The notes beneath the pieces are model-generated. The model did no database searches. It was not told where the DNA came from and saw nothing but the letters and a program-made list of their open reading frames with translations. A stretch of DNA of 64,000 nt from Candidatus Latescibacterota bacterium (lineage in GTDB: Bacteria; Latescibacterota; UBA2968; UBA8231). The position numbers were made by a program, and so were the translations under genes. Of the stretch, positions 43,706-64,000 are shown one piece after another. The DNA lies in assembly GCA_965223905.1 (NCBI GenBank), contig CBDCXV010000002.1, positions 224,001-288,000 on the forward strand. The letters are read 5' to 3'. Within the stretch, counting starts at the first letter, position 1; each line of letters starts with the position of its first letter.

Positions 43706-43899
43706 GGCTTTGACCAACCTGCACGCGAGTAGAGAGGATTCGGGCGCGCACACCCACAGCCTTGCTACAAACGCAGCGCGAACACGAAGGGCACTTCAAT
43801 CTACACTATTCAGAACGCTGGAAGTCTCCGTAGATGGGCGCATCTCCAGCTTGCCACAGAAGTTCTCTATATCCATTTCGAGCGAATTGATATAACCCG

Positions 43900-44158: not shown

Positions 44159-44234
44159 CCTCCATAGGATACAAGTGGTATCAATAATACCACCTGCGCC
44201 AGAAACGGGAAGTTCTGACGCGGACCGCCTCCGT

Positions 44235-48049: not shown

Positions 48050-49769
48050 AGAAGATCAGCTGTGGCTTGGGGTGTACCGGAAGCTCCTCGAAGCGGCGCA
48101 GAGCGGCGCGCGCCTCGTCGGCCAACCCCAGCTTGAAGTCGGCCTGGGCGAGACCGTAATGGGCGTATTTGTGCTCCGGATTCCTTTTTATGGTCTCCTC
48201 GTACATCGCTGCTGACTCTTGTGAGCGCCCCTGCCCGTCGTATACCTTGCCAAGCTCGAAGTAGGCCTCCGCATATTCGGGATTGCGTTCAATCGCCCTC
48301 ACCAGGCTTTTCTCTGCAGCGGCCAGCAAACCGTGTCGCGATTTCGTCACACCGAGGCTATAGTAGGTCAGTGCTGAGTTTGGGTCGCGGACGGACACCG
48401 CTTCAAACTCGCCGGCAGCGCGCTCGTACTGACCTATGTTCAGATAGACGTGGGCGAGATTGTACTGATACAGTATCTCCTCTCTGCCGCCCTCGTCCAC
48501 CGCCCACTGCAGAAACTGGATCGCTTCGTCGTACTCACCGTGCTCTTTGAACAGGATCAGGGCGAGGTCGTTATAGGCTGGCGCAAATCCCGGATCGATC
48601 TGGATGGCGGTCCGGAGGGCAACCATGGACTCGTCGAAGCGCTCGAGTTGTGCCAATGCCAATCCGAGACCGCGATAGTTCGCGGCGTTGTCAGCATCCA
48701 GCTCGATGGCCGCCCGGTAGTGGGACAATGCAAGGGCGTGGCTGCGGTGGGCTATCGCTTCCTGGGCGGCCCTGCGTTCGATCCGCGAAGCTTTTGCCGG
48801 CTCAGTACCCAGAACCTTGTCTCGCGCGTGGAGCTCGAGGCCAAGTCTGGCCGATCGGTACAGGCGCGCTTCGCCGGCAGCGGGCCAGCCGCGGCTTTTG
48901 TACAGCCGGCCCAGATCGTACTGATCCCTGGCGATATCGGGGTGGATCATTTTCAGGGCGCCCCGTTCGATGTACTCCGGTCTGTTCTCCTTGAGGTCGT
49001 GGAGGCGCTCCATGGCAGCCTCGGCTTCCGAGGTCCTGCCGGCCTTGCGATAGAGTCGACTCAGTTGGTAGTACACTTCGAGGAAATCTTCGTCCAGGTC
49101 TCGGGCCCGCTCAAGCGAAGCGATGGCGAGAGAATCCTGTCCCAGGCGCGCTCGCGCCTTGCCCAAGCCATACCAGCACTCCGCCTGATCCGGATCGAGC
49201 CGGCTGGCCAATGCGTACTCTTCCAGTGCCTCTCGTGGTTTGTTTTTACGCAGAAGGATTGAACCGAGGTAGCGGCGGGACAGGCTGCTCATGGGATCGA
49301 TCTGCAGCGACGCTTGAAAGGCGAGCCGGGCGCGGTCGAGAATTCCTCGGAATTCATAGACGATGCCGGCGTTGTAGTGGTAAGCCGGATGACCTGGATC
49401 CAGTTCGATTGCCCGCTCGAAGGCGGCGCAGGCCTCGTCGTACTGTCGCTTGCGGGTTTGGGCGATCGCCAGACCGTGGTGTGCCTGCGCCAGCGTCGTG
49501 TCGAGCGCCGTGGCCATGGCGAAGTAGGTCCTGGCACTGTCCGTCTGACCTCTGGCGAGGAACAGGACGCCCAGTTCATAAGGCCAGAGTGCGTCGGCCG
49601 ATCGAGTGGCGATCCCAAGGCGCAGAAGCTGCTCAGCCTGTTTGAATCGCCTCGCCTCCATCAAGTGAATGGCCTGACGAAGATCTCGCTGCCCGATCGC
49701 CTCGAGGCCGGAGCTCACGAAAATGGTGAGGGCCACCACACCGGCAAAGGTAGTCCTCCTCCCCCTCAT
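48027..49769 (-). CDS. Tetratricopeptide repeat protein
   Basis: Multiple TPR units; signal-like N-terminus. Confidence 0.85.
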   Translation of the reverse strand: MRGRRTTFAGVVALTIFVSSGLEAIGQRDLRQAIHLMEARRFKQAEQLLRLGIATRSADALWPYELGVLFLARGQTDSARTYFAMATALDTTLAQAHHGLAIAQTRKRQYDEACAAFERAIELDPGHPAYHYNAGIVYEFRGILDRARLAFQASLQIDPMSSLSRRYLGSILLRKNKPREALEEYALASRLDPDQAECWYGLGKARARLGQDSLAIASLERARDLDEDFLEVYYQLSRLYRKAGRTSEAEAAMERLHDLKENRPEYIERGALKMIHPDIARDQYDLGRLYKSRGWPAAGEARLYRSARLGLELHARDKVLGTEPAKASRIERRAAQEAIAHRSHALALSHYRAAIELDADNAANYRGLGLALAQLERFDESMVALRTAIQIDPGFAPAYNDLALILFKEHGEYDEAIQFLQWAVDEGGREEILYQYNLAHVYLNIGQYERAAGEFEAVSVRDPNSALTYYSLGVTKSRHGLLAAAEKSLVRAIERNPEYAEAYFELGKVYDGQGRSQESAAMYEETIKRNPEHKYAHYGLAQADFKLGLADEARAALRRFEELPVHPKPQLIFFAPADAQ

Positions 49770-52078
49770 TGAGCCCCGCTGCTTCCCTCCACGAGCATGT
49801 GTCGCTCGTTCACCGACAAGCCGGTGAACACCTCCACGCGCCCACTGGACCAGCGGACTTCGGCCTCTTCGATGGAGTCCGCTTCACCCAAGCCGATTTC
49901 CAGTTGCCGGCTGTCATTGACACCAAAGCCACCGCCACCGCTCACAACATGGTGGTAGTTCCGGGCGCCGGCTCGTACCCGCACCCGCGCGCCAATGGCG
50001 TCGCGATTGCTCAGCGTGCCGACCAGGCTCAGCGTTACCCAGTTATGCCCCTCCGTGTCGTTGCGTAACAACCGGTTGTTGCGGCGCTCACCGGGGAAAA
50101 AACCGCCGATTGGAACGTAGATATCCTGGTCGCCGTCCCCGTCGTAGTCGGCGAGCGTCACTCCGTGCCCCTTCTCAAGCTGTTCCATGCCAATCTGTGC
50201 AGCTATGTCAACGAAGGTGCCGTCGCCGCGGTTGCGCAGGAGTGCGTCCGGTTCGAGCCGCCCCATCTCGGCGCCGCCGTTGGCCAGGTAGATGTCGAGG
50301 TGGCCGTCGTTGTCGAAATCTCCGTGGGCGGCTCCTGTAGAGCCGTAGGCGTGTCCCAGGCCGGCCTTGTAAGTGACGTCTGCGTAGCCGCCATCTCCTT
50401 CGTTGTGATACAGGGCGGGACGGTTGACGTTGTGCAGGGTGCCCCCGCGAATCCTGCTGTCGGCGACTGCCGTGTAGGCGCTCATCTGACTGCAGAACAA
50501 ATCCAGGTAGCCGTCATTGTCGTAGTCGAAGAAGAAGGTGAAGTACCCCTGCACCGGGAGTTGTGTCCGCGTCTGTTTGGTCACATCGACAAAACGCACC
50601 GTTCCCGTCGTCCCGTCCGTGTCGTTGCGATAGAAGCTGTTGAGGCCAACGAAATGAGCGAGGTACAAATCCAGATCGCCGTCGTTGTCGTAGTCGCCGA
50701 GAGCGCTGCCGATCGTGCGGCCGGGCATGATCCCGGCTGTGGCGGCGATGTCTTCGAAGCGGTTTCCCCCGTCGCTCAGAAACAAGCGATTCCTCGACTC
50801 ACCGCCGGTGACTCCGTTGGTGACGACGAGATCGACACAGCCGTCGTTGTCGATGTCTCCCCATGTAGCGCCGAAGCTGCTTCCACCGTCCTCGACGCCC
50901 ACCTCGTGGGCAACATCGACGAAGGACCCGTCTCCGCCGTTCGCGTAGAGACTGTTTTGACCCCTTCCCCACCAACCTTTGCGGGTCAGGTACAGGTCAG
51001 GATCACCGTCGTTGTCGTAGTCGGCAAATACCGACCCGAGTCCCCACTCTCCGTCCAGCCCTGCCGCCTTCGCCCGATCGACGAACCCCTCCCCACCATC
51101 GTTGCGAAACAGGGCGTTGGCTTCGTAGGCGCCCGTGGCAAACAGATCGAGATCCCCGTCCCCGTCGTAGTCGGCCCAGGCGCTGCCCATACCACCGTCC
51201 CATTTCGTCGCGCCCATCTCGGCGCCAACGTCGACAAACCTGATGGCATCCGATTCTGGCGCTTCATGCGGAAATTGCAGCCGCATGGTGTCGTCAAAAT
51301 CGTCGGGATAGCCCCCAAGCTGCTTGTACCCCAGGTATAGACTCCAGCGCCCGATCGGGTTTTTTGGGCTCCCCTCGGCCGCTCTACGCAGTTCCCTCGC
51401 GGCCGTCTCGAAGTCGCCTTTCAGATAGAAAGTCATGCCCAGGCGGTGCCTGGTTCGAAAGTTGGTTGGTTTCTCGCTCAAAACATCCCGGTAGCACTCG
51501 ATGGCTTCATCCAGTTTTCCCTGCTGCAAGAAGACGTCGCCCAGGTTCAGCAATGCCTCCTGGTTCGCGGGATCCAGCGTGCGGACTCGGGCAAATGCAT
51601 CCTCCGCCTCCTCCAGATCCATCATCTGGTTGGCGCGCATGCGCATGGACCCCACTCCCATCAACGCCCCGGCCGATTCTGGCTCGAGCTTGAGGACACG
51701 TTGCAACAGCGCATAGGCCTCTTCGAGTCTTCCCAGCCGTCCCACTACCTTGGAGAGGTGAAAGGGGGCTCGCGGGCGTTCAGGATCGAGGCGAATTGCC
51801 TTTCGCAACAACGACTCGGCTTTGGTCAGCTCATTGTTGGCCAACCAGATCCAGGCCAGTGAGACGTGTGCATCGTAGTGAGTGGAGTCGATGGCGATGC
51901 AGCGGACGAAGAGTTGCTCGGCGCGCTTGGTGAGGCGCTGGTCCAGTGCCTCCATACCCTTCGTGTACAACTCGCTGATATTCTCCTCCTCGCTCGCCCA
52001 GGCTCGCGAGCCGAGGTTGGTAGCGTTGAGTGAGGCGAGGCAGATCCAGAGGGGAATAAGGCGGGGTGTCCTGTTCAC
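49766..52078 (-). CDS. TPR + FG-GAP + ASPIC/UnbV protein
   Basis: N-terminal TPRs, DYDNDG repeats, SNRDAIGARV...IGLG. Confidence 0.88.
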   Translation of the reverse strand: MNRTPRLIPLWICLASLNATNLGSRAWASEEENISELYTKGMEALDQRLTKRAEQLFVRCIAIDSTHYDAHVSLAWIWLANNELTKAESLLRKAIRLDPERPRAPFHLSKVVGRLGRLEEAYALLQRVLKLEPESAGALMGVGSMRMRANQMMDLEEAEDAFARVRTLDPANQEALLNLGDVFLQQGKLDEAIECYRDVLSEKPTNFRTRHRLGMTFYLKGDFETAARELRRAAEGSPKNPIGRWSLYLGYKQLGGYPDDFDDTMRLQFPHEAPESDAIRFVDVGAEMGATKWDGGMGSAWADYDGDGDLDLFATGAYEANALFRNDGGEGFVDRAKAAGLDGEWGLGSVFADYDNDGDPDLYLTRKGWWGRGQNSLYANGGDGSFVDVAHEVGVEDGGSSFGATWGDIDNDGCVDLVVTNGVTGGESRNRLFLSDGGNRFEDIAATAGIMPGRTIGSALGDYDNDGDLDLYLAHFVGLNSFYRNDTDGTTGTVRFVDVTKQTRTQLPVQGYFTFFFDYDNDGYLDLFCSQMSAYTAVADSRIRGGTLHNVNRPALYHNEGDGGYADVTYKAGLGHAYGSTGAAHGDFDNDGHLDIYLANGGAEMGRLEPDALLRNRGDGTFVDIAAQIGMEQLEKGHGVTLADYDGDGDQDIYVPIGGFFPGERRNNRLLRNDTEGHNWVTLSLVGTLSNRDAIGARVRVRAGARNYHHVVSGGGGFGVNDSRQLEIGLGEADSIEEAEVRWSSGRVEVFTGLSVNERHMLVEGSSGAQ

Positions 52079-52123: not shown

Positions 52124-52168
52124 AAAAAAAGGAAACCCCCGCCGACTTTGTGGAGCCGACGGGGGTTT
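52124..52168 (-). terminator. Rho-independent terminator
   Basis: AAACCCCCG..CGGGGGTTT stem followed by CCT7 on the minus strand, just after the stop at 52196. Confidence 0.85.
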
Positions 52169-52195
52169 GTTGAACGTCCTGAAGACAGTGTCGTT

Positions 52196-53374
52196 TTACC
52201 GAACGTTGTTCTTGACCGCGCCCCAGGAATTCTCTTCGACAGCGGACGGAACGCCGCCGAGACCCAGACCGAAGACCTTGGGATCGTAGATCGTCACTGT
52301 GTTTTCCCAGGCGGCTGGGGCGTGCCACGCTTCGCCAATGAAGGCATCCTGGCCCCAGAAGGGCTGACCCTGACGGCCACCAGCAGGATCATCCTGGTCG
52401 TTGACGGCAATAGTCGCGGGGCTGATGTTGCCGATCGCGGGGTTCCAGCGGACCGCTCGATCAATAACCAGGCCATCGTGGGGGATACTGGCCTCTATGC
52501 GCCAGTCGTCATCGGCCAGATCCTCACCAGAGGCGACCAGATCGACGCCGGTGCCGATCAGCATACCGGAGTTGAAATTGTCAGCGCAGGTCTCTCCACC
52601 GTCGCCGAAGGGCGCGCGATTGCCATCAACCGCGTTGTAAGCGATGACAAACTGCCAGTCCGTCTCCGCCCCGCACTGAGACTCGACGTGGCGCGGTGTG
52701 CTCGGGCGAATATCGTAGTAGCCGATGTACCATTCGCAACCGTCGCCCTGCCAGACACCGGGACCGTCTTCGAGCGCGTTGCTGCGAATGTCGTCGGTGA
52801 CGTCGCATTGCATGTACAGCGCACCGGAGTCGATACCCATGGCGGCTGTGAACGACAGATCGTCGTCACCGTCCGACTCGCCGTTGACGAAGTTCGCTGA
52901 TGAGAGGACCGTGAGGCTCTCGTGCGTCCAGTCACTCAAGTCGCCGTCAATGAAAGGCGCATCCAAGAACCAGAAAAGCGGCTCGTTGTGGGTCGCATCA
53001 CCGCCGGTGGCGCTGGAGGTTGCGGTCAAGCCACCGCCCGAGACGGCGTAGAAATTGTTGACGGAACCGGCGGCGAAAGGCGTGTGAAGCGGGTACTCGT
53101 ACTGCTGCTGGCCTTCCGGAATGCCGGTGCCGATGACGAACACATTGTCCGCGCCGACGTCCGTGATCTGCGAGTCGGAAACCCAGACGGTGTACGGTCC
53201 ACTGCCGTCGTCCGTCCACTGAATATTGTGGACGTAATTCACATCTGGAACCACCTGGCCTTCGACCAGCGGCCGCTCGACGATTCCAACGTCCTCGACG
53301 TTGATATCCGACTGGGCGACGACTAGGACCGGAACCAGAAGAGTTCCTGCTACGGCTGCAATTGCTTTCTTCAT
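52196..53374 (-). CDS. Acidic secreted protein with CBM9/DOMON-like domain and C-terminal SAVEENSWGAVK tail
   Basis: MKK signal peptide; IDGDLSDW, LY...VTDD, WQGDG.E, WRIEASIP, VND.D. Confidence 0.8.
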   Translation of the reverse strand: MKKAIAAVAGTLLVPVLVVAQSDINVEDVGIVERPLVEGQVVPDVNYVHNIQWTDDGSGPYTVWVSDSQITDVGADNVFVIGTGIPEGQQQYEYPLHTPFAAGSVNNFYAVSGGGLTATSSATGGDATHNEPLFWFLDAPFIDGDLSDWTHESLTVLSSANFVNGESDGDDDLSFTAAMGIDSGALYMQCDVTDDIRSNALEDGPGVWQGDGCEWYIGYYDIRPSTPRHVESQCGAETDWQFVIAYNAVDGNRAPFGDGGETCADNFNSGMLIGTGVDLVASGEDLADDDWRIEASIPHDGLVIDRAVRWNPAIGNISPATIAVNDQDDPAGGRQGQPFWGQDAFIGEAWHAPAAWENTVTIYDPKVFGLGLGGVPSAVEENSWGAVKNNVR

Positions 53375-53476
53375 TTCCCACAATCTCCGTGGATATGGGT
53401 AGAGGAATGACAACGAGTACATCATCTGATCGCACCGCTATTTAGAATCCGCAATTCTTAACGAATTTGAGCCGGA

Positions 53477-53505
53477 AATATAGTCAGACACCAGGATAAA
53501 ACCAA
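53477..53505 (-). promoter_or_regulatory. Sigma70-like promoter of the SWGxxK gene
   Basis: TTGGTT-17nt-TATATT on the minus strand in an AT-rich gap. Confidence 0.45.
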
Positions 53506-53548
53506 GAGAATTCTCGCTTCCGCGAAAGAAGGTTACCGGCCATTTGCC

Positions 53549-53920
53549 CTATCTCACCGTCTCATCACGATTCGTGATCGAGCCCTCCTGGGTGAGGGCG
53601 AAGACGACGATGTTGACGCCGAACTAAAGTGGCGCGTGGGGTCGAGTTCGGTGCCTGGCGTAGAAATCTCCATGCGGGGACGGTTGTCCCTGGCAAAAAG
53701 GCAGTGCCTGATAGCCAATCAAGCCAGCCAGGCGGCCACCCAACTCGACGACGACCATGTAGTCGGCGGACGCGGGTCGGCAAGTCAAGTTCTATCTTGC
53801 TTGCGCACAAATATGCCCCGCCGCCGCCAGACAGACCGCCAGCACCGGCAGTCAGCCTCCAGCAGGCCGCGTCAGGTCGACGTCGGATGCCGGTCTTCTG
53901 AATCGTGCGCTGATCGCCAT
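53549..53920 (-). pseudogene. Internally deleted third DUF4159 paralogue
   Basis: MAISARFRRPASDVDLTR, DYMVVVELGGRL..IGYQAL and FGVNIVVFALTQEGSITNRDETVR* match both ends of the other two copies. Confidence 0.85.
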
Positions 53921-53978
53921 TGGTGCTCTCAGCCGCGAATGGAGCAGAGTTCGGTGTCGGCACGCTGAGGCGGAAACT

Positions 53979-54830
53979 TCAGCGTGCGCCCATGATCCAA
54001 TCGCGGCGACGCGCCAGGCGCGCTTCTTCCCCCTTCAACTTCCTCTTTTCCACCTTGTGGAGGAAGTGAAAGACGATGTCGATACTGCGGGACGTATTGT
54101 TGGCTTCGTCGAATTCGAGGGCGAACTTGCGCAGGTGCAGCTCGACGTTCTCGACTCGCTCGGTGAGGGGACCGAAGACGAGATAACCCGAGTAGTCCTG
54201 GCCTCTGAAGATCTGGTGGTCCGGCCGGTAGAGCCGCTCCCGGACGATACCCATGCGCTGGTCAAAGCGATATTGTTCGTTTCCCCCGGCCCCACGGACA
54301 TAGGTGAAATAGTCTTCGAAGCTGTTCCGAGACTCTTCCCGGTTGACGGAGTAGAAGATGAACTCCTCTCCCAGATTCGTACGCAGCCGCGCCTCTTCGG
54401 GCAACATCTCTACTTTGGGCTCTACGGGATTGAAGACGGCGACCTCGAAGACGGTGAAACGATTGGGTGTGTAACCCAGTTTGGGATCGCGCCAGTTGCC
54501 GTATGTGAAGGGGTTGGCTGAAAAGCGATCCTGGCTCGACACGTCCGGATAGAGCTGGTTGAGCTCCTTGTCGCCGAGAGCCCGGATTGTGACTCGCAGA
54601 CCCTCGCGATCGAAGGTTATGGAGCCGTCCGGATTGACGACGTACTCCGCGTCGGTTCCGGAGAGCTCCAATGGCACCAGGTAGGAGTTGTAGTCGTAAA
54701 GGGGCGGCAGCATGCGATAGACGATCTCTGGAGTGCTGCAACCCGTGGACGCAACCAGCAGCCCCAGGGTCAACGTCAGTCCGGTATGCAAAGTAGAGAT
54801 TCCCATGGTAACTGCTCTTTCTCCGATCAT
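53979..54830 (-). CDS. Hypothetical lipoprotein
   Basis: ATGA overlap with upstream stop; LLVASTGC lipobox; NPFTYGNW.DP. Confidence 0.75.
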   Translation of the reverse strand: MIGERAVTMGISTLHTGLTLTLGLLVASTGCSTPEIVYRMLPPLYDYNSYLVPLELSGTDAEYVVNPDGSITFDREGLRVTIRALGDKELNQLYPDVSSQDRFSANPFTYGNWRDPKLGYTPNRFTVFEVAVFNPVEPKVEMLPEEARLRTNLGEEFIFYSVNREESRNSFEDYFTYVRGAGGNEQYRFDQRMGIVRERLYRPDHQIFRGQDYSGYLVFGPLTERVENVELHLRKFALEFDEANNTSRSIDIVFHFLHKVEKRKLKGEEARLARRRDWIMGAR

Positions 54831-57559
54831 TCGGAAGCCGCCAGGATCTGCTCGCCCACGAACACCTGGACGTAGCTGCGGACGAAACTGCCGGACGCCA
54901 AGCCAGGCTCGTCGAACTTCTGTTTGGTGTATTGCAGACCAGTGGTGATGAAGACGTTGAAGCCGCTGCTGCGCCCTTTCATCTTGACCTGACCGAGGTA
55001 GGTCTGGGATTTGAAATCCGCCAGCTCGTCGTCGCGGTCGATGAAGCGCTCCTTGAAGAAGGGGAAGCCTTCTGCTCCGAGCTCGAGGGCGGTACGCTCG
55101 GTAAAGGTGTAACTCAGTTGGAGGATCGGCGTGATTTGTGTGACGTCCCGTTTGGCGGGCAAACCACCCGGGGCAAATCCGGCAAGCTGATTCTGTTTCA
55201 GCAGGGTGTGCTTGATTTTGGGCTGTACGGTGAGACCGCGCCAGATCCACGTGTAATCCGCCTTGTTCACCAGTGCCCACGTATTGATGTCATCTTTCAC
55301 CTGGGCCGTCCCGTCTGCAAACTGAGCCTCATTCTGGTAGTTGAGTTCGTAGCGCAGATTGTTGTGTAGATTCACGTTGCGTCCCGGCGTCCACGAAGTG
55401 CCCACGTAGCCTCGATGAACTCTGCTGTTGCGCATGGTCAGTGCATCCTCGACAAAAACCGATTCGTAGACGCCCCCGGTTCCGACTTTCACTTCGTTGG
55501 TGAGGAAGTACTGAAAGCCGTTATTGGGGATGTTGTCTTTCACACTCTTGAACTGGTGTTCCCACCGTAGCCGGGCTCGTCCGGGAAAAATGCGCCGGTA
55601 TGAAGCGGTGAGATAATTCTCATTGCTCTCACCGAAAGCGGCTATCTGCTCGATGCGAACCAGACCGGCTCCAAGGCGCAAACTTGGCAGCGGCGTGGCC
55701 AGATCCACGAAATAATGGCCGCCGCGTTCGTCTTTGTAGTAGGGATAATCGGGCAGGGAGTCATCCTCGAAGTAGTCGAGAACACCGTTATGGTTGAAAT
55801 CGTCCCCCCAGTAAAACACCTGTTCTTCCTGCCAGTACTTGAAAAAAGGCTCGGCGAAGTCCGGGATATGATTGCGATTGCGGTTGTAGTCGGGAGTGCC
55901 ATCCTGATCGAGATCCCAACCAGGATACACTCCTGAGTAGAGTGGAGCGGTGCGGACCGCTACGGGCACGTCGTTCTGGCCCTGATCCAGGTACTGATCG
56001 TCGTCGTCATTGTCCTCCACCAGTTGGAAGACTTTGAGGCGTCTGTTGGTGCCGTTCTTGACGTCGTTGGCTTGGCGTTCGTTGAAAAAGAAATCGAAAT
56101 TGTTGCCCACGTAGTCGGCGTCGATGATGTCCTTATCTCCACTCCCTATCTTCGGATCCCCGAGTCTGAAATCGCCGTTGTCGAGCTCATATGAATTGTA
56201 CTTCGGGCTGATGGAGAATCGCTCTCCTCCAAGGATGATCTTGCTCCAGTCCTGGGTTGCCCGGACGTAATAAGCATCGCCGCTGTAGGAGCTGCGCTCA
56301 CCGATTTGCTCCTCGGGGAACTGGAAATGGGCCGTTGAGCGGGCGTACTCCCAATCCAGGAGGAGGTTGCCCAGGGCCAGCTTGCCGTTGAGGCCGCTGA
56401 CGTTCAACGCCGAGGAGAGGCCGTAGGCGAGATCGACAACACGCATCTGATCCACTCCGTTGCCGCTGGCACGGCCGAGGGTCACCACCGGCGTTTGGCG
56501 GACTTCCTGCTGGTAGAAGGTGTTGTTCGGGTTCAGGGCGCGGTGGGACTGGCGCGTTCCCAGCCGGTAGTCCTGGCCTACAGCGGGACTGCTCTGCACG
56601 CTCACAGTCGAGACGGGGATTGGCACGACCTGTTCCACGTAGGAATCTCCGCTCACTTCCAGGTGATCCTCCTCCCACTGCACACCGTCGGTAGCTACCA
56701 TAACCGGCCGGATTCCCTGAATCACCCGGTTCTGGTTGGCGCCGCGGCGCACGGTCAGGGTTGAGCTGCCGCCGTACACGGCGGCGCCCCACTGTCCTCC
56801 AGCGGGTGAATCATCCGTTATCCGCACCACGACAAAGTCCGGATTCATCGCTCTGGGCATGGTGCCCTTCAAGAAGTTGCCATCTCGTTGCATGCTGTCA
56901 AAGCGATGGTGGTTGATGAGGGTCGCGCCGAGGAACATGGCCCCCTCGAGAAAGCGGCCCTGCCAGTGCAAGCCGTTCAACAGGGTGCCGTCTTCGTGTT
57001 CAGCTGTGCCCGACCCCTGGGCGCGAAATGATTTCTGCGGATCCGAGGCGCGTGTCGTCAGACCGACGAGCTCGTGGTTCTGGCCGATGATGGCGTCAGC
57101 GCGCACGCCGGTAAAGCGGGCGATATCGAGGGTGAGGGACGTAAAGGTTGTGCGCACAGCGTCACCGATCAGTACCCGCGCTGCTCCGTTGGTGAAGTTC
57201 TCTTTGGCAACTACAACTCCGTTGTGTCGGCCGAGCCGTCTGAAAAGAAGGCTGCCGAAGTCCGGATCCCGGGTTCGATCCTCCTCCCAGCGGAAGACCT
57301 CCTGGGCCTCTATCAGCCAGGGTTCGCCCATGCGGTCGTAGGCTGCAAACCAGTCAAAGCCGCGGCCTCGCTCCCGATACCGGCGCCAGCCGAAGTTTTC
57401 GTACTCCATCTGCGTGTTGGGACGCAGCAGGAACTGGCTCTTCGGTGTCCAGCCGGTTTCCACTTCGGTGTCGGGGACAACCGGCCCGGAGAGCCCGAGA
57501 CCTGCGGCGGCAGGAGCACTCAGTAGCCCGACGGCGATGACTGGAATGAGTGTCCTCAT
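54827..57559 (-). CDS. 910-aa exported, probably outer-membrane, protein of unknown function
   Basis: Signal peptide; amphipathic beta segments; DxDxDG-type motifs. Confidence 0.75.
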   Translation of the reverse strand: MRTLIPVIAVGLLSAPAAAGLGLSGPVVPDTEVETGWTPKSQFLLRPNTQMEYENFGWRRYRERGRGFDWFAAYDRMGEPWLIEAQEVFRWEEDRTRDPDFGSLLFRRLGRHNGVVVAKENFTNGAARVLIGDAVRTTFTSLTLDIARFTGVRADAIIGQNHELVGLTTRASDPQKSFRAQGSGTAEHEDGTLLNGLHWQGRFLEGAMFLGATLINHHRFDSMQRDGNFLKGTMPRAMNPDFVVVRITDDSPAGGQWGAAVYGGSSTLTVRRGANQNRVIQGIRPVMVATDGVQWEEDHLEVSGDSYVEQVVPIPVSTVSVQSSPAVGQDYRLGTRQSHRALNPNNTFYQQEVRQTPVVTLGRASGNGVDQMRVVDLAYGLSSALNVSGLNGKLALGNLLLDWEYARSTAHFQFPEEQIGERSSYSGDAYYVRATQDWSKIILGGERFSISPKYNSYELDNGDFRLGDPKIGSGDKDIIDADYVGNNFDFFFNERQANDVKNGTNRRLKVFQLVEDNDDDDQYLDQGQNDVPVAVRTAPLYSGVYPGWDLDQDGTPDYNRNRNHIPDFAEPFFKYWQEEQVFYWGDDFNHNGVLDYFEDDSLPDYPYYKDERGGHYFVDLATPLPSLRLGAGLVRIEQIAAFGESNENYLTASYRRIFPGRARLRWEHQFKSVKDNIPNNGFQYFLTNEVKVGTGGVYESVFVEDALTMRNSRVHRGYVGTSWTPGRNVNLHNNLRYELNYQNEAQFADGTAQVKDDINTWALVNKADYTWIWRGLTVQPKIKHTLLKQNQLAGFAPGGLPAKRDVTQITPILQLSYTFTERTALELGAEGFPFFKERFIDRDDELADFKSQTYLGQVKMKGRSSGFNVFITTGLQYTKQKFDEPGLASGSFVRSYVQVFVGEQILAASE

Positions 57560-57560
57560 T

Positions 57561-58835
57561 TCAGCGCACGTTCTCCATCACGCGATTCGTGATCGAACCC
57601 TCTTGAGTGAGGGCAAAGACGATGGTGTTGATGCCGAACTGCAGGTGTCGGCTGTTGTCCAGGTATGCGTTTCTGTTGTTGCGGAATCCCACGTTCTCCC
57701 AGGCGATCCCCAGGGCCTGATAGGAAATAACCGTGACCAGGCGACCGTCCAGCTCGACGCCGACGAGGTAGTCCACGTTGTCGCGCCCTTCCCCCGGCAC
57801 GAGTTCCGAGTAGCTCGCCGGGGTTCCGGCGAGTGCCTTCGGCGGGTGGTCGAAATCAAAATAGGAGTGGTAAATAGGGTGGTCGTGCGGAAGTCTGATG
57901 AACCGGGCCTGCCGGTTCACGGTGGCCAGAGCATCCCGGACCATCTGCCGTATGAAGATGTCGGTGTCACTGCCGACTCTCCTGCCGGCGTCCGCCAGGA
58001 TAAATCCACCTCCCGCCAGGTAGGCGCCCACATTGACCAACTCGCCCTCAGTGAGGGTAAAGGTCACCTGCGGCACGAAGATCCACGGAGTCTCCATGAG
58101 CTCCTGGGAGCTGAGAGACAGGCGGGTGGAAAAGTCGGCCCGGATATCCGTGAACTCGTTGAGGGCGTCTACCAGATTCGTCACGGCGAACGGGCTCTGC
58201 AGAAGCGCGGCGCCTGCGTCGCTGGTCACCGTGCTCTGAACGCGGCCTTCGATCATGCGCGACGAGTATGCCTGGGCGACGTGGAAGTACCCCTTGATGT
58301 TGCGCTTGTCGTCTGGATCCTGGATGATCATCGCCTGGTACTTGCCGGTGTCCAGGAAATTGAGGTCGAGGAGCTGTTCCTTCATGTCGATCTTGTTGTC
58401 TGGCTCCTTCGAGGTCGATACGCCGATGTCCGTCACGCCTCCACCCGGGTCGATGGAGACGAGTTCGGCTCCCGCATCCAGACTCACCTGTGGCGCGCCC
58501 AACGAGCGCAGCGAAATGCCGCCAACCTGGCTTGTCAATAAGCGCGAAGTCCGGGCCTGAAGCTGGACTTGCTGTCGCACCATCTTGCGCTGCCGCGGCT
58601 TGGGTTTCTTGCGCAGCTCCATCGGTTTGGTCATACGTGGCTGACGCTGGATGAAGCGCGTCGTCAGCGGTCGCGAATCAGCCTCGCCTCCAAACTCCGC
58701 CGAGCGCAGCATCATCCCCACGTGAGCCAGCACGGCGACCACAAGGGAGCCGACCAGAATTGGCAGTCCCCTGTTGAGAAGGCGCGTCAGATCGACGTCC
58801 GATGCCGGACCCCTGAACCGTGGACTTACCGCCAC
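57561..58835 (-). CDS. DUF4159-domain protein with TonB-like TM anchor
   Basis: Close paralogue of 42467..43705; abuts exbD. Confidence 0.8.
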   Translation of the reverse strand: MAVSPRFRGPASDVDLTRLLNRGLPILVGSLVVAVLAHVGMMLRSAEFGGEADSRPLTTRFIQRQPRMTKPMELRKKPKPRQRKMVRQQVQLQARTSRLLTSQVGGISLRSLGAPQVSLDAGAELVSIDPGGGVTDIGVSTSKEPDNKIDMKEQLLDLNFLDTGKYQAMIIQDPDDKRNIKGYFHVAQAYSSRMIEGRVQSTVTSDAGAALLQSPFAVTNLVDALNEFTDIRADFSTRLSLSSQELMETPWIFVPQVTFTLTEGELVNVGAYLAGGGFILADAGRRVGSDTDIFIRQMVRDALATVNRQARFIRLPHDHPIYHSYFDFDHPPKALAGTPASYSELVPGEGRDNVDYLVGVELDGRLVTVISYQALGIAWENVGFRNNRNAYLDNSRHLQFGINTIVFALTQEGSITNRVMENVR

Positions 58836-59264
58836 TTATTCCCCTTTCGCCGCGCTCTCAGTGTCCTCGGGTTTGTCTACCGCCAGGGAGATCGTCTCTA
58901 CCCCCAGACTCTTGGCTATCTCCATGATGTCGAGGGTGTATTCATGCCGGGCCTCGCGATCTGCCTTGACGATGAGGGTGACACTCCGTGTGCGTCTTTT
59001 TTCGTTCGACAGCATGCTGGCCAGGGATGTCTTTGTGACCACCCTGCTATTAAGTTCCATGCGCCCATCTTCGTCGATGGAAAGGAACATTTTCGTCTCC
59101 GAAATCTGCTGCCAGTTCTCGGCTTCCGGAAGCTCGATCTGCAAACCCACCGAGGACGTGAAGATCGTCGTCACCATGAAGAAGACCAGCAACAGGAAGA
59201 CGCAGTCGATGAGCGGAGTGAGGTTGAGCTCTACCCCTTCGGATCCTTCAAAGCCTTGAGCCAT
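58836..59264 (-). CDS. exbD: ExbD/TolR family protein
   Basis: LNLTPLIDCVFLLLVFFMV, I.LP.A, KAD. Confidence 0.92.
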   Translation of the reverse strand: MAQGFEGSEGVELNLTPLIDCVFLLLVFFMVTTIFTSSVGLQIELPEAENWQQISETKMFLSIDEDGRMELNSRVVTKTSLASMLSNEKRRTRSVTLIVKADREARHEYTLDIMEIAKSLGVETISLAVDKPEDTESAAKGE

Positions 59265-59270
59265 CGGTCC

Positions 59271-60656
59271 TCACTTGGCGCAGCGAAAGCCGACGTGAGT
59301 GGATCGCTGAGACGGATCCATGGACCCTCGTGTCACCGAGCGCACGCTGGCGGCATCATCAATCCAGCTGCCGCCGCGAATGGCCCTATGTGGCGTCCGG
59401 TCCGCTGCCGCCGGGGTTGCCGGGTCAGCCCTGGCAATGGTCTCCAGAGCGATCTCCCCAAACGTTGCGTTGTTGCGTTCCGTGGTATTGATAAAGCGAC
59501 CGAGCTCCCTGGCGATGTCGCGCTCGATATCCACGTACAGGCGCTCGTCGTACCAGTCAGATGTCCATTCCCACACATTGCCCGCCATGTCGTAGGCGCC
59601 CACATCGCTGCGGCCCCGCACATAGCTGCCCACATCCACAGTGCGCCGTACGTTGCCGGAAATCTCCCCTCCGAAGTTCAGCCGCGCCGCGTCGGGATCG
59701 TCACTTCCCCAGGGGTAGAGATCTCGTACCCCTGCCGTCAATACGGTTTGGCGGAGAAGATTCAAAATGTCCGCCTCGAACCTCTCCCCAGCATCGGAAT
59801 CCCGCAACTCGGCTTGACTCGCCGCTGAGTCGAAGGCGGAGCGAAAACGCCGGACGATCGTGTCGAAGTTCGAGTTGAAACTTCCGGTGCTTCCCCCCCC
59901 CCGCGCGGCGCGCTCCCACTCTGCTTCTGTCGGCAGGCGCTTTCCAACCGACTCGCAATAGGCCACAGCATCCTCCCAGATCACGCCGACGACCGGTTGC
60001 AGGTCGCCACCGAAATCCTCCAGGTTTCCGAAGTCGTGCGCCCGCTGATCGGCCTGCAGAAACTTCCGGTACTCGGAGTTCGTGACCTCGTAGCGATCAA
60101 TCTCGAAAGCGCTGAGAATGATCACCTGACCGGGGGCTTCACCGACATACCCTGCGGACTCGCGGTGACCGAAGCGGATATCCGGGATCTGGGACGGGTC
60201 GACTCCCAGCACGGAAATACCCGCTGGTACCGAGATCATCGATCCCAGATCTGAGGGCGGGTCAAAAGATTCCTTCACCGTTATGACGACATGGTCCGAG
60301 ACCCAGGTGTCGGCGAAGCGGCTGCTGCTCATCCAGAGAAGGAAAGGAAAGACCCCCGCCTCCCTAGCTGTGAAATGAACCATCGGCGAATTGGCATTCT
60401 CCAGCTGAATGCGCGGCGACAGGCTTTCCCATTCATACCGCAAGGCGCCGCCGCCAGCTGAGGCGCTGCCGTCGAGGCTCACACTCTCTCCCGTCAGGAC
60501 GGACTGATCGGGGCCGGCGTCCGGGCGCAGTTCGTCGGAAGCCTTGCGCGTTGAGATCGAGTCGTCGCTGCCACACGCCACCAGACACAGCACGATCAGA
60601 GCTGGGTGTGACCGGACGAAAGCACGCAGATTGCGGGAACGGTCAGCGGCGCCCAT
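59271..60656 (-). CDS. PKD + FGE/SUMF1-fold lipoprotein
   Basis: LVAC lipobox; DAGPDQ..LDGS; YEVTN, RLPTEAEWE.AARG, DMAGNVWEW, RGGSW, GFRC. Confidence 0.88.
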   Translation of the reverse strand: MGAADRSRNLRAFVRSHPALIVLCLVACGSDDSISTRKASDELRPDAGPDQSVLTGESVSLDGSASAGGGALRYEWESLSPRIQLENANSPMVHFTAREAGVFPFLLWMSSSRFADTWVSDHVVITVKESFDPPSDLGSMISVPAGISVLGVDPSQIPDIRFGHRESAGYVGEAPGQVIILSAFEIDRYEVTNSEYRKFLQADQRAHDFGNLEDFGGDLQPVVGVIWEDAVAYCESVGKRLPTEAEWERAARGGGSTGSFNSNFDTIVRRFRSAFDSAASQAELRDSDAGERFEADILNLLRQTVLTAGVRDLYPWGSDDPDAARLNFGGEISGNVRRTVDVGSYVRGRSDVGAYDMAGNVWEWTSDWYDERLYVDIERDIARELGRFINTTERNNATFGEIALETIARADPATPAAADRTPHRAIRGGSWIDDAASVRSVTRGSMDPSQRSTHVGFRCAK

Positions 60657-60687
60657 GTGCCCCCTGAAACACGATACCCACCTTCTC

Positions 60688-61110
60688 TTATCCCTCCCTG
60701 GCGAAGGCAATGCCCACGATACCCTGACCACGGGCGATGTCGGCAATGGTCACGACCGTGTGATGCAGAGTGCTTGGATGGGCCTGAAGGATCATGTTCT
60801 CCGTCTTCAGTCGTTCCCTGAGCTGTTTGATACCCTCGCCAAGATCGTCCATTGTGACCGGCTCGCCGTTCAACTCCATGGTGCCGTTTTCTTCGACGAT
60901 CAGGTTGATATCCTTGCCCGGTTGGGTCTCTGCAGCCGCCGCTTTGGGCATGTCTACGTTCAACCCCTTCGTGGTGATGAACACCGTTGTCACCATGAAG
61001 AATATCAACAGCATGAAGACGCAGTCGATCAAAGGGGTGAGGTCGACGCTCTCCTCCCGCAACAGGGACAACCCCTTCAAATGCTCCTGTATCTTGCGAC
61101 TGGCTCCCAT
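60688..61110 (-). CDS. exbD: ExbD/TolR family protein (second)
   Basis: VDLTPLIDCVFMLLIFFMVTT, VDMPKA. Confidence 0.92.
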   Translation of the reverse strand: MGASRKIQEHLKGLSLLREESVDLTPLIDCVFMLLIFFMVTTVFITTKGLNVDMPKAAAAETQPGKDINLIVEENGTMELNGEPVTMDDLGEGIKQLRERLKTENMILQAHPSTLHHTVVTIADIARGQGIVGIAFAREG

Positions 61111-61143
61111 GGCTCGCTAGCGCTGACTCGGGTCCATGATTCT

Positions 61144-61782
61144 CTATTGCTGACGGCTCTTGATCAGGGTATTTCCGAAAGCGTGGAAGAAAACCTCCCC
61201 GCGCTCGACAATGCCCTCGGCTCGCGAGGCAAGATAGCGATAGAAGATGATCGACGGGATGGCGATGATGAGACCGCCCGCGGTGGTCAACAGCGCCTTG
61301 GAAATACCGCCCGCAACGACTTGAGGATCGCCGGTTCCGGCGCGGGCGATCGCATCGAAGGCCTCGATCATTCCGACGATGGTTCCCAGAAGTCCCAGGA
61401 GAGGAGCCACCGTACCGATGGTCGACAGAACCAGCAGGAATCGACCCAGGTATTTACGCGACGTTTGGGCTGTGGTCAGAGTCAGCTCGTCCCTCATGTC
61501 CTCCACCCCTCTTTCCTCGAGGACGAGGGTGTCGAACCGTTTCATGAGCGAGGCGAACACGAAGTTCGCGTAGCCTCGTCCCCCAGCGCAGTGATCGGCG
61601 GCCGCCTTCTCTCCCTGCCTGATGACTATGGCCTCGACCTCGCCAAGTTCACTCTCGATTTCTTCTTCACTCGGCGCTCGATGGAGCACGATCAGGCGTT
61701 CCAGCAACACGGCCAGCGCCACGATCGACATGGCGACGAGAATGTACATGATCCCGCCGCCGCTTCGAATCAATTCCAGCAT
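61144..61782 (-). CDS. exbB: MotA/TolQ/ExbB proton channel protein
   Basis: APLLGLLGTIVGMIEAF, AGGISKALLTTAGGLIIAIP. Confidence 0.93.
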   Translation of the reverse strand: MLELIRSGGGIMYILVAMSIVALAVLLERLIVLHRAPSEEEIESELGEVEAIVIRQGEKAAADHCAGGRGYANFVFASLMKRFDTLVLEERGVEDMRDELTLTTAQTSRKYLGRFLLVLSTIGTVAPLLGLLGTIVGMIEAFDAIARAGTGDPQVVAGGISKALLTTAGGLIIAIPSIIFYRYLASRAEGIVERGEVFFHAFGNTLIKSRQQ

Positions 61783-61798
61783 CCTGATCCTTCCTTTC

Positions 61799-64000
61799 TC
61801 ACAGTCTGTTCCTGACGATCCAATTCAGATGTTCCTCTGCAAAGGCCACGGCAGACGCGCTCGTCGAATCCTCCCGATACGACTCCAACAGATTCCGGTA
61901 CACTTTGGCCGCGTCCTTCCACTTGTGCAAGAACTCGTAACTCATGCCGAGATTTGCCATTGCCCCGGCACGCGTCTCGGTCCCCTCATAGATGGAAACC
62001 ACCTCCTCCAGTGCCGCGGCAGCCTGGTCGTACACCTCCTGGTCGAAGAGCGACATGGCGTTCTCGTACTTGATATACGCCTGGATCTCCTCTACCTCGG
62101 CGAGGAGCCCCTGCGCTTCGGTTGCCATCTTCGACTCTGGATGGTCTTCGATTACCTGGCGATACATCTGTGCGGCGGTATCGTAATCCTTCCCGTTGAA
62201 GTAGTAGTCTCCAAGCGTGAACTGTGCACTCGGCGCCAGAGTGCTTGTCGGGAAGCGGTCCAGGAGTTCCTCGAATCGTTTCACCGCATCTTCCTGGCGT
62301 TCCAGCTCGAAATAGCACCAGGCGAGGTTATATATTGAGTTGTCGACGAAGTCGGATTGAGGGTAGTCCGTCACGACACGTTTGTAGGCTGTCGTCGCTT
62401 CTTCGAAACGCCTCAGGTTGAACAGGTTTTCACCGCGCTGGAAGAGCGCTTCGGAGACGACCCCGCTCCTCGGAAAACGTTCGACAAGCAGGCCGAACCA
62501 TTCAGCTGCCGAAGCAAAGTCCGTCTGCTGCAGGTGGGAGTAGGCCAGTAGGTAGTACGCGTTCTCGACGTTCGGATTGTCCGGAAATTCGTCGATGAAA
62601 TCCCGCAGCAGTGGAATCATCTGCTCGGTAGCGCCCAGAGAGAAGGAGGACACCGCCTTGCCGAAGAGCAGATCGGCCCTCAGTGATGATCGCGGAAACC
62701 GCGTCAGCGCTTCGTCGAAGATACGCCGGGCTCCTTCGTGCTCTTCGAGTCGTCCGTGGGAATCTCCCATGACAAACAGGGCGCGTTCTTCGAGCAGGTA
62801 TCCCCGGTCTGCGGAGCTGTCATGAAAGTCCGAATCGACGATGCTCTGACACTGTGCTAGCGCTTCCCGGTAGCGCTCCAGACTGTAATAGAGCTCTGCC
62901 AGCAACAGAGTGAACTCCGCCTTTTCAGTGGAATTGTCGCTGGCTGCGATAATGGCCTGGTAATCCACAATCGCTTCCGCCTTGCGACCGCTTCTCACGT
63001 AACACTGGGCGAGCAGCCGATGGGCTTGATCTTTCATGTCGAGGGGTGGGTTCAGACGAAGCAGCTCTTCCAGATCGGGGATGGCGCTGGCCACGTCCCC
63101 ACCCTGGAAGTACGAGGTCCCCCGACCCAAAAGCGATCCCAGGGTGATGACGACGTCCTCACTGTTTTTCCGGGCGTTGCCGAAAGCGGCGGCGGCGGCG
63201 GCGTGTCGACCCTGCTCGAAGTTGACCCTGGCGAGCACATAGTAAAGCTCTGCGGGGGCCAGATTTCCCAGGGAAACTGCTAACCCAAGCAGCAACAGCT
63301 CCTCGGCTTTTTCGAGGCGGCCGACACGCAGGAGGAATTCGCCACCCATGATCCCGGCCTTCGTCCACATCGCCGATGTGGGCGGGATACGGTCCAGAGA
63401 CGCTGTCGCCTCGTCATAGCGTCTCGCATCTCTGTAGGCAAGTGCCAGCTCGAGCAGTATCTGGTCCCTGCCGGCTCTTTCCGGATAGATTCGCAGATAC
63501 TCTTCGTAGAGCGCTGCCGAGCGTTCGAAATCGGCTTGCAGGTAGTGGATACGCGCGGTCTGCAGCCGAGCCCGTGCCAGCACTTCGGGCCGGTTTGGGT
63601 GTTTCCTGGCGATCGCCTCGAAGAGCTCGAGCGCCATGGCCAGGTCACCTCTCTGCTCCCGCCGCTGGGTGGAAAGGCCGGCACCAAACAGACTTTCTGC
63701 CCCCAGCTCCGTGCCGGGGTGGTCCTCGATTACCTGGAGATAGGACTTTCGGGCATTCCCGTAATTCTCACCAGCGCTCCACGCCCCACCGTTCTCCTCG
63801 GCCCGGTCCGCCTCGGCCAGTTCGAAGTAACACTGAGCAACCTGAAATCGTGCCCGATCCATTCCCAGGTCGCCGCCCACAGGCGCATCGCCGTAAGCGC
63901 TGATATAGATGAGGTACTCTTCCAGAGCATTGCGGAATTGTCGCGCTTGGTAATAGCGCCGGCCGATGCGCGCCTGCATGCGGGCGCGGAACCCGGTCTC
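61799..64000 (-). CDS. Large periplasmic-type TPR protein (CpoB/BamD-like repeats), 5' truncated
   Basis: Many ..FP.S...A.F..G TPR units; frame runs to the window edge. Confidence 0.85.
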   Translation of the reverse strand, partial: ETGFRARMQARIGRRYYQARQFRNALEEYLIYISAYGDAPVGGDLGMDRARFQVAQCYFELAEADRAEENGGAWSAGENYGNARKSYLQVIEDHPGTELGAESLFGAGLSTQRREQRGDLAMALELFEAIARKHPNRPEVLARARLQTARIHYLQADFERSAALYEEYLRIYPERAGRDQILLELALAYRDARRYDEATASLDRIPPTSAMWTKAGIMGGEFLLRVGRLEKAEELLLLGLAVSLGNLAPAELYYVLARVNFEQGRHAAAAAAFGNARKNSEDVVITLGSLLGRGTSYFQGGDVASAIPDLEELLRLNPPLDMKDQAHRLLAQCYVRSGRKAEAIVDYQAIIAASDNSTEKAEFTLLLAELYYSLERYREALAQCQSIVDSDFHDSSADRGYLLEERALFVMGDSHGRLEEHEGARRIFDEALTRFPRSSLRADLLFGKAVSSFSLGATEQMIPLLRDFIDEFPDNPNVENAYYLLAYSHLQQTDFASAAEWFGLLVERFPRSGVVSEALFQRGENLFNLRRFEEATTAYKRVVTDYPQSDFVDNSIYNLAWCYFELERQEDAVKRFEELLDRFPTSTLAPSAQFTLGDYYFNGKDYDTAAQMYRQVIEDHPESKMATEAQGLLAEVEEIQAYIKYENAMSLFDQEVYDQAAAALEEVVSIYEGTETRAGAMANLGMSYEFLHKWKDAAKVYRNLLESYREDSTSASAVAFAEEHLNWIVRNRL

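Follow-up and report, generated by a model that had tools for sequence, protein, structure and literature searches.

To our knowledge, Gram-negative bacteria have only two well-understood means of putting inner-membrane energy to work at the outer membrane, the Ton and Tol systems. In the Ton/SusCD systems of Bacteroidota, a 5:2-type motor and a membrane-anchored transducer with a histidine in its anchor serve many barrel paralogues, each with its surface-exposed binding protein, and the motors are few. The Agl-Glt gliding machinery of Myxococcus is built from one TolQ-like and two TolR-like subunits, tetratricopeptide repeat (TPR) proteins, outer-membrane barrels, TonB-like proteins and a lipoprotein. 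A more recently described family of periplasmic force transducers, of unknown function, has a transmembrane (TM) helix with an SHLS motif, a disordered linker and a head of the vWA fold; its genes follow those of a TPR protein, TolQ and two unlike TolR proteins (Williams-Jones et al., Mol Biol Evol 2025; PMC12204202). Here we analyse an ExbB/ExbD-centred operon of a Candidatus Latescibacterota bacterium (assembly GCA_965223905.1), eight genes of which form a cluster at 52196-64000 of a 64,000-nucleotide (nt) window (C2:224001-288000 of the genome, C2 being contig CBDCXV010000002.1; positions without a contig are those of the window). A further 18 kb past the window end was also examined. The best explanation overall, to which we give a probability of roughly 0.5, is a Ton/Tol-type envelope-spanning machine driven by the proton-motive force, in which a TonB analogue headed by a DUF4159 domain couples ExbB/ExbD to giant outer-membrane barrels.

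The motor and the DUF4159 protein

The eight genes, all on the minus strand, are present as first described. By Pfam and NCBIfam profile searches of the window proteins, together with lipobox evidence, they comprise a TPR protein, an ExbB, an ExbD, a lipoprotein of the FGE-sulfatase fold, a second ExbD, a TM-anchored DUF4159 protein, a 910-residue protein and a second lipoprotein. The tight packing was reproduced in full, with gaps of 0-33 nt from the TPR gene to the last lipoprotein gene and one ATGA overlap (54830-54827), where the stop of the 910-residue gene meets the start of the lipoprotein gene. The exported TPR protein has 1,079 residues and is cut by the window end, which leaves its C-terminal 733 residues at 61799..64000 (the gene starts at the window-equivalent position 65038); it matches TPR_6, TPR_2, TPR_16 and YfiO in Pfam, with E-values for TPR families down to 1e-56, and YbgF in NCBIfam. 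The ExbB/TolQ-type proton channel subunit (212 residues, 61144..61782; PF01618, E 7e-29) is accompanied by two ExbD/TolR-type subunits, ExbD1 (140 residues, 60688..61110; PF02472, E 8.5e-25) and ExbD2 (142 residues, 58836..59264; PF02472, E 1.4e-26). The two are 36% identical, and both keep the TM aspartate, in TPLIDCVF, which we take to be equivalent to Asp25 of E. coli ExbD.

One ExbB with two distinct ExbDs is present here, as the original prediction had it, but this arrangement does not define the system. Related loci, here and below, are the best 77 neighbourhoods among 457 relatives confirmed in species genomes; hidden Markov models (HMMs) made from the window proteins were run over their open reading frames (ORFs), and because the loci are cut 10 kb from the barrel, the per-gene counts are lower bounds. 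Among the 26 of these loci with ExbB, only 10 have two ExbDs, while 13 have one and 3 have none in range. The FGE-fold lipoprotein, encoded between the two ExbD genes (59271..60656; lipobox LVAC; PF03781, E 7.9e-46), had been likened to the GldK/PorK ring, a comparison that is not supported: it scores 79 bits with the GldK model TIGR03525 at a cut-off of 350, falls likewise far below the cut-off of the GldJ model, and shows neither the equivalog match nor the constant presence expected of a GldK/PorK protein. As an FGE-type gene is found in only 5 of the 77 loci, we regard it as a lineage-specific accessory. The match to the GltC model is at chance level (E 0.0068), no dedicated search for Glt proteins having been made.

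The composition of the motor block raises the question of a Tol-Pal-like system for tethering or envelope homeostasis, in which the TPR protein would be CpoB-like, ExbB/ExbD would act as TolQ/TolR, the TM-DUF4159 protein would take the role of TolA and the lipoprotein that of Pal. The gene order TPR-Q-R-transducer-lipoprotein does recall tol-pal, and the TPR protein passes the YbgF/CpoB cut-off (201 against 90 bits) in 6 stretches, through six repeats. TolQ (94.5 bits) and TolR (67.5 bits) are also the best NCBIfam matches of the motor subunits, but these scores lie far under the equivalog cut-offs of 221 and 127, and the ExbB model is below its cut-off as well; the YbgF-type model is the only one of the set to pass. 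Moreover, among the genes of the operon Pfam finds neither TolB nor an OmpA-like Pal domain, and the multiple copies of the system and its obligatory linkage to barrels and to proteins with a C-terminal domain (CTD) misfit a housekeeping tether. We consider a Tol-Pal-like role improbable.

The candidate force transducer of the Ton-like machine that we prefer is the TM-DUF4159 protein (57561..58835), which consists of a TM helix with a histidine (AVLAH), a basic, proline-containing linker and a C-terminal DUF4159 domain (PF13709, E 3.6e-22). In E. coli TonB, Ser16 and His20 define the motor-binding face. A single N-terminal TM helix with a histidine is found in 39 of the 51 DUF4159 homologues that the related loci encode; in each of the 39 a small residue precedes the histidine by four positions, and in 25 of the 51 the pattern is S-x3-H. 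The canonical TonB of this genome, which is encoded behind its own ExbB-ExbD, has STAAH at the equivalent place. The helix is followed by a conserved basic segment with the pattern KF(V/I)QRAPRLxKPLELxKRP. The SHLS motif of the vWA-headed transducers has been assigned the same motor-binding role as the Ser/His of E. coli TonB (PMC12204202).

The original prediction saw no recognisable TonB, TolA/TolB/Pal or TonB-dependent receptor. For the genes of the operon this stands by Pfam: TonB_C (PF03544) is in none of them, and no canonical TonB or TonB-dependent receptor is among the upstream genes described below. It falls short in two respects, as the DUF4159 protein has a TonB-like anchor and a paralogous cluster of the genome carries TonB_C on its lipoprotein. 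Elsewhere in the genome, TonB_C occurs on the canonical TonB and on this lipoprotein homologue.

The DUF4159 family profile matches one solved structure, PDB 4i66, an uncharacterised protein of Haliangium (E 1.1e-22); a search of PDB sequences with the single DUF4159 protein gave a chance match only. Queries of the ESM Atlas with the DUF4159 protein and with the lipoprotein led to nothing beyond the proteins' own clusters, which are unnamed or labelled DUF4159. With the DUF4159 alignment as query, 235 homologues were matched, of which the named ones belong to Latescibacterota or Ignavibacteriaceae, and none of the 235 links to the PVC proteins of PMC12204202. When compared at the level of sequence profiles with the vWA domains of the genome, DUF4159 gave a probability of 1.3% (hhalign), and Pfam finds no vWA family in the protein. 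No publication joining DUF4159 with ExbD was found, and searches for DUF4159, PF13709, 4I66 and Hoch_4089 surfaced only the 2015 Pfam paper. A second, solitary TM-DUF4159 gene lies at 42467-43753 on the minus strand and is 71% identical to the operon copy; about 600 nt away is an ISL3-family transposase gene (40588-41886, plus strand; PF01610, E 2.4e-67). The solitary gene may be a recent duplication or a relocated copy.

The lipoprotein at the end of the cluster (53979..54830) belongs to an unnamed family, without a match in Pfam or NCBIfam, whose lipobox cysteine is invariant in 33 aligned homologues. In loci labelled Ignavibacteria or Bacteroidota, its homologues are about 490-550 residues long and end in a second DUF4159 domain; the fusion is over the Pfam cut-off in 10 of 20 homologues scanned, with 2 more weak. 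The lipoprotein of the paralogous cluster of the same genome (C1:1488435-1489670) is the one fused to TonB_C (26.6 and 29.4 bits, cut-off 24.6), and a weaker TonB_C match is present on the homologue of locus L062. Since DUF4159 is fused behind a lipoprotein in other lineages, we conclude that it works outside the cytoplasm, and the DUF4159 and TonB_C fusions together indicate that lipoprotein and DUF4159 belong together and that the system is evolutionarily tied to TonB-type coupling. When the DUF4159 head (residues 185-424) and the mature lipoprotein, each supplied as an alignment, were modelled as a complex, the score was 0.00, which says nothing on binding either way.

Giant outer-membrane barrels and their partners

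The 910-residue protein (54827..57559, minus strand) had been listed as an exported protein. The gene exists as described, but the listing omitted that the product is modelled as an outer-membrane barrel with 34 paralogues in the genome. It has no family in Pfam or NCBIfam, and its family profile gives 0 matches to PDB sequences at E <= 1. The AlphaFold2 model, calculated from an alignment of 84 family members (it supersedes a poor model from 14 sequences, with a pLDDT of 59), is all-beta, with a pLDDT of 79.4 and a pTM of 0.82, and has about 24 strands that span 10 residues or more, besides about 12 shorter ones. Structural searches with Foldseek and VIA-align matched outer-membrane barrels only, none of them closely. 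The best are SlpA of Deinococcus (8ae1: E 2e-9, TMq 0.28) and MtrB of Shewanella (6r2q: E 2e-8, TMq 0.26, Z 10.5 over 420 residues), both with a root-mean-square deviation of 17-20 Å; the SusC-like BT1762 gives Z 11.9 over 343 residues. TonB-dependent receptors appear as weak generic barrel matches (TMq 0.18-0.20, Z 9-12), and the family profile has a probability of 0.27% when aligned by hhalign with seven of the TonB-dependent transporters (TBDTs) of the genome itself. With only distant generic barrel matches and no profile similarity to TBDTs, the protein is, according to its model, a giant outer-membrane barrel that forms its own family, and its fold appears not to be that of an ordinary TonB-dependent receptor. 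Distant members of the family have weak matches to SlpA_C of Pfam.

Two segments of the barrel are set apart by their conservation. The N-terminal motif FLxR..YxNY (residues 43-56) combines conservation with low confidence in the model, a pattern that a flexible handle would show. The best-conserved part among the 84 sequences is an Asp-rich insert at about residues 451-610, and the most conserved segment (about residues 513-617) is rich in Asp and Asn: LVDDNDDxD ... GVFPGxDxDxDGxPDxNRNxNxxPDYxEPF ... NNNGVxDxRENDxxPDYPY, conserved to at least 90%. Its DxDxDG-like repeats presumably resemble calcium-binding repeats. The short turns of outer-membrane barrels are periplasmic, and since the insert follows a tight hairpin (438/441), it would be an external loop.

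The barrel does not stand alone in the operon, which extends about 9.5 kb past the window end through four more co-directional, tightly packed upstream genes with products of 939, 966, 312 and 582 residues. Together with a terminator-like hairpin downstream, these suggest a likely unit of about 21 kb and 13 genes. The 939- and 966-residue proteins match no known family and are paralogues of the 910-residue barrel (tblastn). The 312-residue protein resembles the PorV/PorQ family NF033709 (E 2.7e-13, 50.2 bits, below the cut-off of 90) over profile positions 9-179 of 326. The 582-residue protein has an F5/8 type C domain and an FlgD_ig/CHU_C-like tail of the kind associated with type IX secretion (T9SS); the tail scores 36.4 bits with FlgD_ig (cut-off 27), 25.1 with CHU_C (cut-off 27) and 23.4 with TIGR04131 (cut-off 35), the matches to type A (TIGR04183/PF18962) and type B (TIGR04131/PF13585) sorting domains being sub-threshold.

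A profile search of 1.84 billion representatives assigns 1,268 representative clusters to the barrel family at E <= 0.001, of which 437 reach E <= 1e-30. By HMM search of six-frame ORFs, the 34 paralogues of this genome are 849-1,218 residues long (E <= 2e-90) and lie in 20 loci, to be compared with 26 Pfam matches, in about 24 genes, for classical TBDT barrels. Of 151 sampled genomes of the phylum 94 have the barrel, with all 63 of the bacterium's own family among them and none from two other families (0 of 30 and 0 of 19); one of the sampled genomes has up to 95 first-look candidates. In some Latescibacterota giant barrels may outnumber classical TonB-dependent receptors.

The TPR, DUF4159 and lipoprotein genes occur together in about six loci of the genome, with or without motor genes. 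Orphan barrel loci hold one to three barrels together with one to three proteins that bear a CTD tail, many of which also have an F5/8 type C domain. A CTD-tailed neighbour is present at all 20 barrel loci (19 by BLAST label, one by Pfam), and the CTD paralogues beside other barrels are often above cut-off (CHU_C: 52.7 bits, Por_Secre_tail: 32.3 bits, for example). A scan of 134 neighbouring ORFs of at least 230 residues (85 + 49), chosen by a greedy longest-ORF rule that lets in some spurious antisense ORFs, found single genes of GH32/43-like, BNR, CBM9, pectate-lyase-like and GFO/IDH/MocA families beside orphan loci and many ORFs without a family. We had considered polysaccharide-utilisation-like neighbourhoods and rejected them, as the carbohydrate families are scattered and too few to name a substrate.

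Several other genes accompany the orphan barrels. SurA-like proteins of 407-657 residues with two peptidyl-prolyl isomerase (PPIase) domains are encoded at seven loci (L094, L099, L101, L102, L106, L108 and L110) and may serve as chaperones dedicated to the giant barrels or to the surface partners of these barrels. Proteins of about 660 residues with DUF6785 and DUF6784 (E about 1e-118), possibly membrane proteins, are found at three (L093:11934-13937, L094:15556-17550 and L104:17141-19123) and may be an inner-membrane partner of orphan loci. Transposase genes of the ISL3, IS4/5, IS66, IS21 and IS91 types also lie beside orphan loci (L100:14927-16120, L102:83-886, L102:1924-3429, L102:15340-16995 and L104:1997-3439), and transposases may have helped to spread the barrel paralogues.

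The close association of barrels with CTD proteins has to be weighed against an explanation in which the system handles surface proteins: the barrels would be anchors or exit ports for T9SS-tailed partners, and the motor would move, release, insert or turn them over in a gliding-like, adhesin-cycling or secretion process. Such a system would resemble the pairs PorQ-PorZ, PorV-PorU and SprF-SprB. CTD genes do pair strictly with barrels, lying directly upstream of a small or giant barrel at 62 of the 77 related loci and being neighbours of barrels at all 20 loci of this genome; the operon has its PorV/PorQ-like barrel, degradative enzymes nearby are few, the motor block of this lineage includes a lipoprotein with the fold of GldJ and GldK, and the SurA-like PPIases beside seven orphan loci fit the biogenesis of barrels and surface proteins as well as they fit uptake. 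A TonB-dependent transporter is reported to be able to serve protein secretion in Myxococcus (PMC6434023). However, 34 barrels with divergent partners fit substrate diversity better than they fit a single motility apparatus, the FGE gene is missing from 72 of the 77 loci, barrels of about 900 residues are far larger than known CTD anchors, and the best-conserved part of the barrel, as judged from the alignment, appears to be the Asp-rich insert and not a CTD-binding surface. We regard surface-protein handling as unlikely and favour Ton-like coupling of the motor to the giant barrels.

Conservation of the cluster and type IX secretion

The neighbourhood of the barrel is conserved across related genomes of several FCB-type phyla, in agreement with the original prediction. 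The 77 loci carry the labels Latescibacterota, Zixibacteria, KSB1/Zhuqueibacterota, Ignavibacteria, Bacteroidota, Gemmatimonadota and Handelsmanbacteria, with single contigs labelled Chloroflexota and Rhodothermales. A CTD protein is present in 63 loci, a TPR protein of at least 700 residues in 58 (directly after a barrel in 49), a DUF4159 protein in 51, the lipoprotein in 43, a PorV/Q-like barrel in 29 and ExbB in 26; TPR and DUF4159 proteins occur together in 49. Where the whole TPR gene and 5 kb or more past it are included (29 loci), DUF4159 is found in 21, the lipoprotein in 21 and ExbB in 13. The conserved core is the CTD protein, the giant barrel or barrels, the TPR protein, the DUF4159 protein and the lipoprotein, with the PorV/Q-like barrel and ExbB-ExbD as less regular members; the second ExbD and the FGE lipoprotein are not constant. 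A record labelled Ignavibacterium album (locus L034) has a partial cluster of CTD protein, PorV/Q-like barrel, giant barrel and TPR protein. Ignavibacterium album has a cultured type strain.

These counts bear on another explanation of the locus, that a motor operon and a barrel/CTD operon are independent and merely lie side by side. Such an arrangement would suit the 14 of 20 barrel loci of this genome that lack TPR and DUF4159 genes, as well as a motor cluster without a giant barrel (C2:360987-368512, about 73 kb past the window end), in which tblastn finds the lipoprotein, a PorV/Q-like protein, TPR, ExbB, ExbD and DUF4159. It is at odds with the gaps of 0-33 nt, with the overlap of start and stop between barrel and lipoprotein genes, with the position of the DUF4159 gene between motor and barrel genes, and with the adjacency of barrel and TPR genes at 49 of the 77 loci in several phyla. 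We think it very improbable.

The original prediction had also raised the idea that the module stands in for GldLM. In this version the ExbBD-DUF4159 module would replace GldLM/PorLM and energise the T9SS in genomes with SprA and CTD cargo and without GldKLMN. This genome does have SprA (277 bits, with neighbouring matches), and gldK gives no match over its cut-off; GldL and GldM give no match at all, with models that likewise matched none of 14 control genomes, and we claim no absence. SprA was found in all five of the other cluster-holding genomes that were searched and a GldM match in none, and in a sample of 201 Bacteroidota genomes none of the 5 with the barrel has a GldM match. The same sample shows how little this says. 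GldM is matched in only 51 of its 162 SprA-positive genomes, which makes a missing GldM uninformative, and at least 106 SprA-positive genomes have neither a GldM match nor the barrel, so GldM and the barrel cluster are not complementary. In addition, the module, of which a genome has about six copies, is in every case connected to its own barrels and not to sprA, and the genome is 93.6% complete. Replacement of GldLM finds no support in these data, and we judge it quite improbable.

At its downstream end, the operon closes with the gene of a 409-residue exported protein (52196..53425, minus strand), which has a weak, CBM9-like match below cut-off (PF06452, E 1.4e-4) and occurs in 3 of the 77 related loci, in close relatives only. 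It is followed by the terminator-like hairpin of 15 pairs and a T run (52133..52168, minus strand), the strongest of 4 such sites in the region, where 1.4 are expected; this is the likely 3' end. Exact matches to parts of the operon are found among the contigs of two RNA libraries, which come from one study and carry the label sponge metagenome. They cover the 409-residue gene (52169-53427, up to 1,145 nt), and short contigs lie in the DUF4159, FGE, ExbD1/ExbB and TPR genes, one spanning the ExbB-TPR junction (61513-61840). Most of the barrel gene and the lipoprotein gene are uncovered, which is not evidence of silence. As assembled contigs, these data do not reveal strand or level.

Directly downstream of the operon (46358-52078, minus strand) are genes for three exported TPR and FG-GAP/ASPIC-UnbV proteins of 770, 580 and 563 residues. 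In the closest relatives (L003-L005) these three genes likewise come after the cluster, and FG-GAP/ASPIC genes also flank several orphan barrel loci. Sugar-metabolism genes lie nearby at 39140-45470 (aldose 1-epimerase, NAD-dependent epimerase and an MR/MLE-type enzyme of the enolase superfamily).

The proposed machine and described systems

In the machine that we propose, an ExbB pentamer with the ExbD1/ExbD2 pair would form the inner-membrane stator, on which the TM-DUF4159 protein would dock through its TonB-like histidine helix. The basic linker would carry DUF4159 into the periplasm, where it would replace the C-terminal domain of TonB as the head of the force transducer, with the co-encoded lipoprotein and the 1,079-residue periplasmic TPR scaffold as its likely partners. 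Force would then reach the dedicated giant barrels (910, 939 and 966 residues), probably by way of the conserved flexible N-terminal handle. Each barrel would be paired with lectin-domain surface proteins that bear T9SS-type tails, one of which is probably held by the PorV/PorQ-like barrel of 312 residues, and many such pairs would share few motors. As its function we prefer uptake: large substrates caught at the surface would be taken in at the expense of energy, much as in SusCD-type transport. That the operon encodes a Ton-like force-transducing machine acting on giant barrels seems to us somewhat better than an even bet; that the job of this machine is import is a more tentative suggestion, to which we would give rather less than even odds.

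Several observations weigh against this proposal. The DUF4159 protein of the operon itself has Ala and not Ser four residues before its histidine (AVLAH), and 12 of the 51 homologues lack the TM histidine. In the barrel we recognise no Plug or TonB_dep_Rec match by Pfam, no plug domain and no TonB box. ExbB/ExbD genes are within reach in only 26 of the 77 loci, which implies that the motor is often encoded elsewhere or shared. Carbohydrate-active enzymes are sparse beside orphan barrels; the majority of the neighbouring genes match no Pfam family, and among those with a name the SurA-like PPIase is the most frequent. The RNA contigs come from a single study in which DNA carry-over is possible, and they leave large parts of the operon uncovered. 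Finally, while the domain identities, the barrel fold, the gene order and its conservation, the paralogue expansion, the fusions and the anchor motif come directly from the data, every physical contact, the direction of transport and the substrate are parts of the proposal that we infer.

A wider claim can be put forward, as a possible but doubtful one: that, next to TonB-dependent receptors and the T9SS, the system represents energised outer-membrane transport of a third kind. It would comprise giant barrels (about 30 strands by model count) with an Asp-rich insert of calcium-binding type, a two-piece substitute for TonB (an anchor headed by DUF4159 and a lipoprotein adaptor that carries DUF4159 or TonB_C in some lineages) and lectin-type surface proteins delivered by the T9SS, with a SusCD-like logic achieved by unrelated parts. 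The cluster suggests a rewiring of the ExbB/ExbD motor, in which another head domain and a lipoprotein partner link it to a wholly different, very large family of barrels. If confirmed, this would be the first functional context for DUF4159 and a new class of transporter or anchor in the outer membrane, and it would show how uncultured bacteria of the FCB group, with transcripts in sponge-labelled RNA libraries, acquire or display material. The partial cluster of Ignavibacterium album makes the question open to experiment.

The original prediction proposed an undescribed machine, and we have found no conserved cluster of this kind, centred on ExbB/ExbD, in print apart from the analogous vWA-headed family. 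The likeness to that family (PMC12204202) lies in a single TM helix with an SHLS-type histidine, a linker and a head that is neither that of TonB nor that of TolA, encoded after TPR, tolQ and two tolR genes. The head differs, being DUF4159 and, by sequence (hhalign), not vWA; that paper does not use the word DUF, and the sections examined are silent on giant barrels, on CTD proteins and on a PorV-like barrel or the lipoprotein. Some of the proteins described there as vWA may be DUF4159 proteins. The types of part also agree with those of Agl-Glt, but two ExbDs are not constant (10 of 26), the system is multi-copy and its barrel families are expanded. With GldJ/GldK of Flavobacterium the operon shares the FGE fold, at scores far below the cut-offs of the GldK and GldJ models and with FGE in 5 of 77 loci, and with SlpA and MtrB it shares giant barrels that are the best structural matches, although at TM 0.26-0.28, the 910-residue protein having no SLH domain and no relation at the level of sequence. 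Ton/SusCD and the proposed machine both have a 5:2-type motor, a histidine in the anchor of the transducer and many barrel paralogues paired with a surface binding protein, whereas here the transducer has no TonB_C, the barrels have no profile similarity to TBDTs and are apparently larger, the surface partners have T9SS-type tails in place of SusD-like lipoproteins, and a giant TPR protein and a dedicated lipoprotein have been added.

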